DNA of 11,072 bases, from IMG/VR virus record IMGVR_UViG_2698536560_000011, positions 1 through 11,072 of that record, one strand, 5' to 3'. A program made the translations under genes and the position numbers. The notes below the pieces were generated by a model that saw only the letters and a program-made list of their open reading frames with translations, was not told the origin of the DNA and ran no database searches. This DNA comes from a virus. Lineage: Duplodnaviria > Heunggongvirae > Uroviricota > Caudoviricetes. Positions 2,241-2,268 of the stretch are shown one piece after another. Position 1 is the first letter of the stretch; the number at the start of each line of letters is the position of its first letter.

Positions 2241-2268
2241 GCGGTTTCAACTCCCGCCAGCTCCACCA
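2241..2268 (+). other. att core: 3'-terminal fragment of a tmRNA (ssrA)-like gene ending in CCA, without the tmRNA body
   Basis: GCGGTTTCAACTCCCGCCAGCTCCACCA matches my recollection of the enterobacterial tmRNA 3' end (T-arm, acceptor strand, CCA) except for one G-to-T change at 2245. The roughly 360 nt upstream is not tmRNA-like; it holds protein ORFs on the other strand. The integrase start lies 185 bp downstream. Confidence 0.6.

Follow-up and report, generated by a model that had tools for sequence, protein, structure and literature searches.

Few sites in enterobacteria receive as many integrations as the tmRNA gene ssrA, and the window analyzed here (the whole stretch of 11,072 nt) raises the question of why a satellite integrase gene should be preceded by the last few nucleotides of this gene without the gene itself. 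Positions 2241 to 2268 (plus strand) read GCGGTTTCAACTCCCGCCAGCTCCACCA, and the E. coli ssrA reference (L001 5666-6028, 363 nt) terminates in GCGGGTTCAACTCCCGCCAGCTCCACCA. When the whole 363-nt gene was aligned by BLAST, this stretch matched ssrA positions 336 to 363 at 27 of 28 nucleotides (E=1.3e-8), the sole mismatch being a T that replaces G at 2245. The exact 23-mer TTCAACTCCCGCCAGCTCCACCA was present in one copy in the window and absent from all 200 shuffles, with 3 mismatches tolerated. ARAGORN predicted 0 tRNA or tmRNA genes in the window, Rfam returned no tmRNA match at E<=1, and a short-word BLAST search with whole ssrA gave nothing above noise besides 2241-2268, both in the window and in 3 kb further left in the source contig. 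On these negative results, a decayed tmRNA- or tRNA-like gene to the left of 2241 was rejected. A tmRNA gene or pseudogene needs a tRNA-like domain with both acceptor strands, the tag reading frame, and the pseudoknot body, a combination that the window does not contain, and the canonical attL on the 3′ end of an intact tRNA or tmRNA gene was likewise absent from the window and present in the satellite's relatives. Two Rfam hits across the junction, IsrM (28 bits, cut-off 376) and CssrB (24 bits, cut-off 76), were sub-threshold and disregarded, and the 2 ORFs spanning the junction are not on record as called genes. An earlier note on this DNA had proposed a match to the last ~23 to 28 nt of tmRNA with no tmRNA body upstream, and both points were borne out. 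The note had also read the T at 2245 as breaking the T-stem; this T would indeed mispair the innermost T-stem pair, but 2241-2246 is predicted to be sequestered in an unrelated hairpin (2209-2246).

We identified the DNA to the right of this fragment as a P4-like satellite. The segment 2241-11,072 was 96% to 99% identical to an element in thousands of complete E. coli genomes, and in the complete genomes inspected, this element stood directly after an intact ssrA and was identical to the window from the CCA end onward. On these alignments, the satellite begins at 2269, and its normal home is directly after an intact ssrA. The integrase-proximal arm (2269-2452, plus strand) is identical to the DNA directly after intact ssrA in L001 and L021-L030. 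It carries, by prediction and fold, a strong intrinsic terminator at ~2301-2340 (plus strand), ~35 nt after the CCA end, which at the real ssrA would substitute for the displaced native tmRNA terminator. The motif GGTATAC, with 4 copies at 2383-2430 against 0.59 expected, all of them within 2269-2452, also occurs in the satellite's right arm, and these motifs are putative arm-type integrase binding sites. A P4-type tyrosine integrase of the ssrA-targeting kind follows (406 aa; 2453-3673, plus strand), with the Pfam domains Arm-DNA-bind_3, Phage_int_M, and Phage_integrase (PF13356, PF22022, and PF00589), and the identical protein adjoins an intact ssrA in 9 of the 10 places listed.

The remainder of the satellite follows the P4 plan. 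A variable cargo slot, recognized by its position between the integrase and psu (3761-5300, minus strand), holds ORFs of 72 aa and 435 aa, neither of which had a Pfam or PADLOC match; the same slot in sister satellites holds Gabija-like, SIR2, NACHT, deaminase, and AbiTii genes, and the slot here may contain uncharacterised defence cargo. The minus-strand block at 5836-7713, assigned also by RefSeq annotation, includes psu (5836-6408; PF07455 Psu on record for the source contig and relatives), a delta/ogr-like gene (6482-6982; PF04606 Ogr_Delta, on record likewise), and a sid-position gene (6979-7713), which was assigned by position only because it had no family match. An exact-protein look-up found this Sid-position protein variant in 1 contig on record, LOOW01000018.1. 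The immunity and replication region (8265-11,072, plus strand; supported by Rfam and by Pfam on record) encodes an AlpA-like gene (8265-8531), an isrK/c4-a1b1 RNA (8590-8680; isrK 72 bits, cut-off 50, and c4-a1b1 49.5 bits, cut-off 46.7), a C4/CI-type antisense RNA (8788-8875; C4 76.6 bits, cut-off 45), an ASH/Icd-like gene, a Derepression-domain gene, a 151-aa ORF, and a DUF5375 ORF. From 10,326, it encodes the 5′ part of a primase-helicase cut by the contig end (Zn_Ribbon_Prim on record), full-length relatives of which carry Toprim, D5_N, and Pox_D5. The features of a P4-like satellite were found in the Arm-DNA-bind_3 integrase, the block of psu, delta/ogr, and sid-position genes, the alpha primase-helicase, and the CI/C4-type immunity RNA with target repeats. 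The left end of a second E. coli satellite reads AATATTGATG....

The DNA to the left has a different provenance. The window is identical to the terminal 11,072 nt of LOOW01000018.1 (240,129 bp), a contig of the E. coli draft GCA_001576025.1 that ends 2 nt past the window, inside the primase gene. Leftward of the window, this contig holds a 50-aa ORF, a 46-nt core repeat matching the 3′ end of thrW (minus strand, ~305-350 nt to the left of window position 1), a yagP fragment, paoD, and paoC. In reference genomes, the left flank runs into yagU, ykgJ, and the ecp operon (20 kb), and positions 1-2268 alone matched 10 genomes at ~100%, none of them at ssrA. In PSJ-23 (L002), the site has the thrW core repeat (~19651-19696) on one side and thrW and its integrase gene (30236-31444) on the other and is therefore inside a thrW-integrated prophage; the genes of this prophage include a Mu-type baseplate, a Pin invertase, a LEM-3-like nuclease, and an EcoRII-like restriction-modification pair, and we liken it to SfV-type phages. 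By this placement, the left side of the window belongs to a prophage at thrW, of which it forms the thrW-distal end, rather than to an ssrA locus.

The unrelated upstream DNA with ORFs on the opposite strand, as the letters had suggested, corresponds to 2 minus-strand ORFs at 1-1419 and 1524-1994. The first, of 472 aa, is host-prophage cargo outside the satellite with similarity to defence proteins (PADLOC PD-T7-1, E=2.8e-69, and PD-T7-5, E=2.6e-35) and no Pfam match; elsewhere, it is found either flanked by the thrW core repeat and the ssrA-derived site or as a moron in Rac-like prophages. The second, of 156 aa, had no Pfam or PADLOC match and is regarded as the partner of the first by co-occurrence, since it was never found apart from the 472-aa ORF or the 341-aa truncated form. 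In Rac-like prophages (L006, L010), both genes are again found together as a moron, with the first at 472 aa or truncated to 341 aa, which gives the pair the look of a mobile defence cassette of 2 genes. Directly beyond the thrW core repeat (L008, L009, L012 at ~12,300-13,700; L041), P4-like satellites whose integrases are of the thrW type were also observed, only ~2.6 kb from the ssrA-type site, and this prophage end thus gathers att sites of at least 2 specificities.

A lambdoid-prophage non-coding module (2065-2240, plus strand), recognized by its conservation across genomes, forms the left arm of the prophage-borne ssrA look-alike, which we call the decoy. Segment 2065-2268 was 99.5% to 100% identical in genomes without the 472-aa and 156-aa ORFs (H46-50), modules of this type were found at ~88% to 92% identity at prophage ends elsewhere (L054, L055, L056), and 2150-2244 recurred downstream of a dinI-like pseudogene (L032, 85%). 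At the end of the module, a strong hairpin is predicted (AACCGCAGCACGTT...GACGTGGCTGCGGTT; 2209-2246, plus strand), covering the first 6 nt of the ssrA-like stretch; the fold of 2150-2340 had an MFE of -60.5 kcal/mol (z=-3.9), and TTTTT follows the hairpin in 1 variant copy (L009/L013). This hairpin probably serves the prophage module as a terminator-type stem. In the variant at L004 15178-15215 (L004/L017/L047/L048), a double change turns a C-G pair into T-A and a C-to-T change gives a G-U pair, which hints that the stem itself is conserved, a single pair being too thin for covariation. Two other assignments were rejected. The hairpin as a tmRNA remnant was ruled out, as the phage module also occurs with unrelated 3′ continuations, and 2065-2240 as the right arm of a like satellite was ruled out, the true right arm being unrelated, with GGTATAC repeats and the degenerate core TTCAAACTCCGCCAGC.

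We searched for the same left flank without the satellite. In all 20 other loci read, the left flank and ssrA-like 28-mer continued into ATCATGATTGGACGG...; read on from the 23-mer, these same 20 loci all continued ATCATGATTGGACGGTG.... They were drawn from complete genomes, other assemblies, metagenomes, and IMG/VR viral contigs. The unoccupied form of the site in the thrW prophage reads ...CCACCAATCATGATTGG, and 124 of 5426 complete E. coli genomes contained 80% or more of a 461-nt segment that covers the site. For ~155 nt, the right flank of the decoy was 90% to 95% identical to the native DNA downstream of ssrA. This flank, ATCATGATTGG..., lies directly after ssrA in UTI89 (95.5% over 176 nt) and distal to CP4-57, adjoining ypjA, in K-12 (90% over 180 nt); because of these 2 positions, we assigned it as the native flank and rejected the alternative that a CP4-57-like island begins with it on the left. 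It contains a terminator hairpin, presumably that of ssrA itself. On the left, the similarity of the decoy to the chromosomal ssrA locus is 23 to 28 nt only. Since the unoccupied copies have a flank like the DNA downstream of native ssrA, the fragment is best described as a host-derived attB copy.

The decoy is probably a fossil attR carried in the cargo regions of lambdoid or SfV-like prophages. Its cores differ in state, with L054 retaining a perfect GCGGG 28-mer and L008, L009/L013, and L055 having cores decayed or partly deleted. A sister composite, in which the module and core are joined to CTTTTGATAGG...dinI, was identified in 89 complete genomes with a synthetic junction query; the TUM14697 copy forms the extreme end of a prophage and adjoins torT, and in 2014C-3655, a prophage occupies ssrA and its distal core runs into CTTTTGATAGG...dinI. 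Loci of the sister composite include L056 20001-20249 and L032 25860-26503. These 89 genomes were set aside as candidates for new insertions, as they look like intact fossil attP sites at prophage ends, and the composite looks like the fossil attP of an ssrA-targeting lambdoid lineage in prophages that are integrated elsewhere. In the proposed history, module-core-CTTTTGATAGG would be the attP of this lineage, module-core-ATCATGATTGG would be the attR formed by it at ssrA, including host flank, and this attR would then have been carried into the cargo regions of other prophages and fixed there. A fossil-attR origin recasts the T at 2245 as a probable variant of the phage copy and not damage to a tmRNA.

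How much of the core takes part in recombination was addressed by reconstructing the satellite attP. The right ends of 11 satellites with this integrase read ...ATATTTATTCAAACTCCGCCAGC, followed by whatever stood right of the target, and their left ends read CAGCTCCACCACTTACTCTTCC, giving a reconstructed attP of TTCAAACTCCGCCAGCTCCACCACTTAC and, for the circular form of the satellite, a predicted attP of TTCAAACTCCGCCAGCTCCACCACTTACTC. The identity of attP to ssrA is confined to 15 nt, CCGCCAGCTCCACCA, corresponding to window positions 2254-2268, and a core of 23 nt, as proposed earlier, is too generous. Strand exchange would take place at or just after CAGC (2258-2261). This gives an estimate of the recombining block for this integrase, ~15 nt in common with ssrA with exchange at CAGC. 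Since only CCGCCAGCTCCACCA is common, the T at 2245 lies outside the recombining block and so should not matter for recombination, and the decoy would supply the complete recombining block together with its natural right flank. In satellites resident at ssrA (L021-L030, ~20,700), the attR cores were variously shortened to CCAGCCCAATCATG, CCAGCTCATG, and CCAGCCAATCATG, compared with the full CCAGCTCCACCA; this pattern suggests repeated small attR deletions, which might lock satellites in place.

Off-target activity of the same integrase was identified in the complete genome CP057589, in which the identical 406-aa integrase and its satellite lie upstream of ylcI in a DLP12-like prophage (L022 9806-20722). 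The attL there reads ...CAAATCAGC up to the junction and TCCACCACTTAC beyond it, and the attR reads ...CCGCCAGC followed by ACACTG. Only CAGC is common across the junction, the identity to ssrA is ~4 to 11 nt, and the reconstructed empty site (correct within 1 nt) was present at full length in 3747 genomes. The integrase thus integrates at secondary sites, even at ones much poorer than the decoy.

Taken with the directly observed identity of both flanks, source context, empty sites, attP reconstruction, and off-target activity of the integrase, we consider it likely that the satellite inserted by integrase-mediated recombination into a prophage-borne copy of the ssrA attB and that the window shows the resulting attL. 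A P4-like satellite that normally occupies the 3′ end of ssrA would have integrated, via its own tyrosine integrase, into a decoy attB in a prophage itself sitting at thrW. This target would have comprised the last 23 to 28 nt of ssrA and ~155 nt of native downstream flank with a terminator, joined on the left to the lambdoid non-coding module. The look-alike at 2241-2268, a decoy attB core by its 27/28 match and the empty copies, would now be the satellite attL core by the attP reconstruction, with the DNA left of ~2258 derived from the prophage decoy and that rightward from the satellite. The attR followed by ATCATGATTGG... would lie beyond the contig end; the right junction is not visible because the contig ends in the primase gene. 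This junction is expected to run from the satellite primase ... to ATATTTATTCAAACTCCGCCAGC(TCCACCA)ATCATGATTGGACGG and then into prophage cargo, with the prophage EcoRII-like restriction and cytosine-methylase genes or an equivalent as the right-hand neighbour. The satellite appears to have inserted in a decoy and not in the real tmRNA gene, and such an insertion appears to be a rare, unsurprising off-target event.

A broader proposition, that prophage-borne ssrA attB copies are functional landing pads used repeatedly by ssrA-targeting satellites and islands, is in our judgment unlikely. If the proposition were true, a satellite could duplicate in 1 cell or be carried and lost with an unrelated prophage, the prophage could act as a decoy diverting satellites from the chromosome, and the core decay in L008, L009, and L055 could reflect selection against targeting and not neutral drift.

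Pattern scans of GTDB representatives, metagenomes, and IMG/VR found no second occupied decoy, none of the metagenome and viral contigs holding the site had the window junction, and a synthetic query joining the module and core to the left end of the downstream integrase element of TW10722 matched 0 genomes. The window junction (301-nt query) and the whole window were found in 0 of 5426 complete E. coli genomes, and the junction was a singleton across all collections searched. Because of this, an assembly mis-join, through the common 23-nt repeat, of the prophage decoy to a satellite resident at ssrA had to be weighed. The assembly is a short-read-style draft, its contig breaks inside the primase gene, a region common to other P4-like satellites, and the exact repeat common to both loci spans the whole junction. 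However, this exact common stretch is just 23 nt, the contig goes on unbroken for 8.8 kb into the satellite, and off-target insertion by the same integrase is proven in a complete genome. Final k-mers are typically longer than 23 nt, and reads much longer still, so a repeat of this length should not collapse in assembly. We regard such an artefact as quite improbable.

Integration of the satellite into the decoy was also weighed against a chromosomal inversion without any new integration, in which the satellite attL at ssrA recombined with the decoy core in the thrW prophage through the integrase or through short homology. Set against the K-12 orientation of thrW and ssrA, the 2 cores would be on opposite strands (thrW is on the minus strand in the window orientation), so an exchange would give an inversion and not a deletion. 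However, a reaction of attL with attB is non-standard for an integrase, 23 nt is very short for RecA-dependent exchange, and the inversion would presumably span roughly half the chromosome, given the K-12 positions of thrW and ssrA. Prophage-mediated inversions have been invoked (PMC8112680), but no reciprocal junction (ssrA body, core, ATCATGATT, and the EcoRII-like restriction endonuclease gene) could be tied to this strain, and 2014C-3655, the only genome with the reciprocal layout, is explained by a prophage integrated at ssrA. Such an inversion is, in our view, very unlikely.

The reading of the earlier note places an att repeat inside a tandem array at ssrA, the intact gene lying to the left; 1-2268 would then close another ssrA-integrated element on its right side. 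This arrangement has close parallels. The lambdoid prophage of HeN100 is followed by a perfect 28-nt core, behind which comes a remnant of the integrase gene of this satellite, the satellite of TW10722 is followed by a second integrase element, and the decoy itself probably started as an attR of such a tandem kind. The reading is extremely unlikely here. The HeN100 tandem has a different left flank. Leftward, the source contig enters the thrW core repeat and then yagP, paoD, and paoC, and neither ssrA nor another core was found in the additional 3 kb. Genomes with the same flank have yagU, ykgJ, and ecp next, and the fragment lies in all of them inside a thrW-integrated prophage. An intact target gene with serial core repeats on the same side, the mark of a tandem array, was not found. 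What stands of that reading is an att-type repeat at the boundary of 2 mobile elements, with a satellite of the P4 integrase type beginning directly after it; the tandem placement at ssrA is contradicted because the leftward DNA and the PSJ-23 block put the fragment inside a thrW-integrated prophage.

Insertion into a prophage-borne attB copy can be compared with several known systems. P4, whose established helper is a P2-type phage, integrates at leuX, and an island of the CP4-57 type occupies ssrA in K-12. Like P4-like satellites at tRNA and tmRNA genes, the element described here has a P4-type integrase by its attL, followed by a cargo slot, psu/delta/sid, a CI-type RNA, and the alpha primase, and near-identical copies of it stand directly after intact ssrA; it differs in that its attL here is on a 28-nt look-alike in a prophage and not on a functional tmRNA gene. 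For readers and for tools that map islands, this is a caution that a tRNA- or tmRNA-like 3′ fragment beside an integrase does not mean that a tRNA or tmRNA locus is nearby.

Integration at secondary att sites by tyrosine integrases is described for lambda (Rutkai et al. 2006, as cited in PMC10111431). In both cases, integration takes place at a mimic of the primary attB overlap or core, as with the identical integrase upstream of ylcI. In contrast to those sites, the decoy is a true copy of the primary attB core and right flank and not a chance resemblance, and it should therefore behave almost like the primary site. Helper-embedded PICIs also nest inside prophages; they target late genes of their own helper, have a dedicated integrase clade, and gain cis-regulation (PMC10111431). 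Here, by contrast, the insertion target, a non-coding relic, gives no sign of a regulatory link, and the host prophage is lambdoid or SfV-like and not a P2-type helper.

The closest precedent is the report that lambdoid prophages carry, at their cargo ends, attB copies of host origin that receive other elements (Nakamura et al. 2021, PLoS Pathog; PMC8112680). These copies were described as "apparently derived from host chromosomes," with flanks 81% to 87% identical to yecE and to ykgJ/ecpE; the 3 sites derive from yecE, ykgJ/ecpE, and ompW, the guests are lambdoid phages, and ssrA is mentioned only as a prophage location (PMC8112680). In the present case, too, a host-derived attB copy with native-flank homology, situated in the cargo end of a prophage (L002, and prophage cargo ends at other loci), would have received an integrative element, and att relics cluster at the prophage end, the thrW core repeat lying ~2.6 kb from the ssrA-type site. 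The homology to the native flank is on the right (90% to 95.5% over 176 to 180 nt), with 23 to 28 nt only on the left, and of the 2 boundaries of the guest, the attL is present and the empty site known, with the attR expected past the contig end. Unlike the published cases, the site here is derived from ssrA, the guest is a P4-like satellite, and there is 1 occupied example with its right junction beyond the contig. The biological consequence for the cell is probably small. If real, the case extends the idea of attB sites inside prophages to the ssrA/tmRNA site and to phage satellites as guests, and an ssrA-derived attB copy with a P4-like satellite as its guest is a small extension of that concept.
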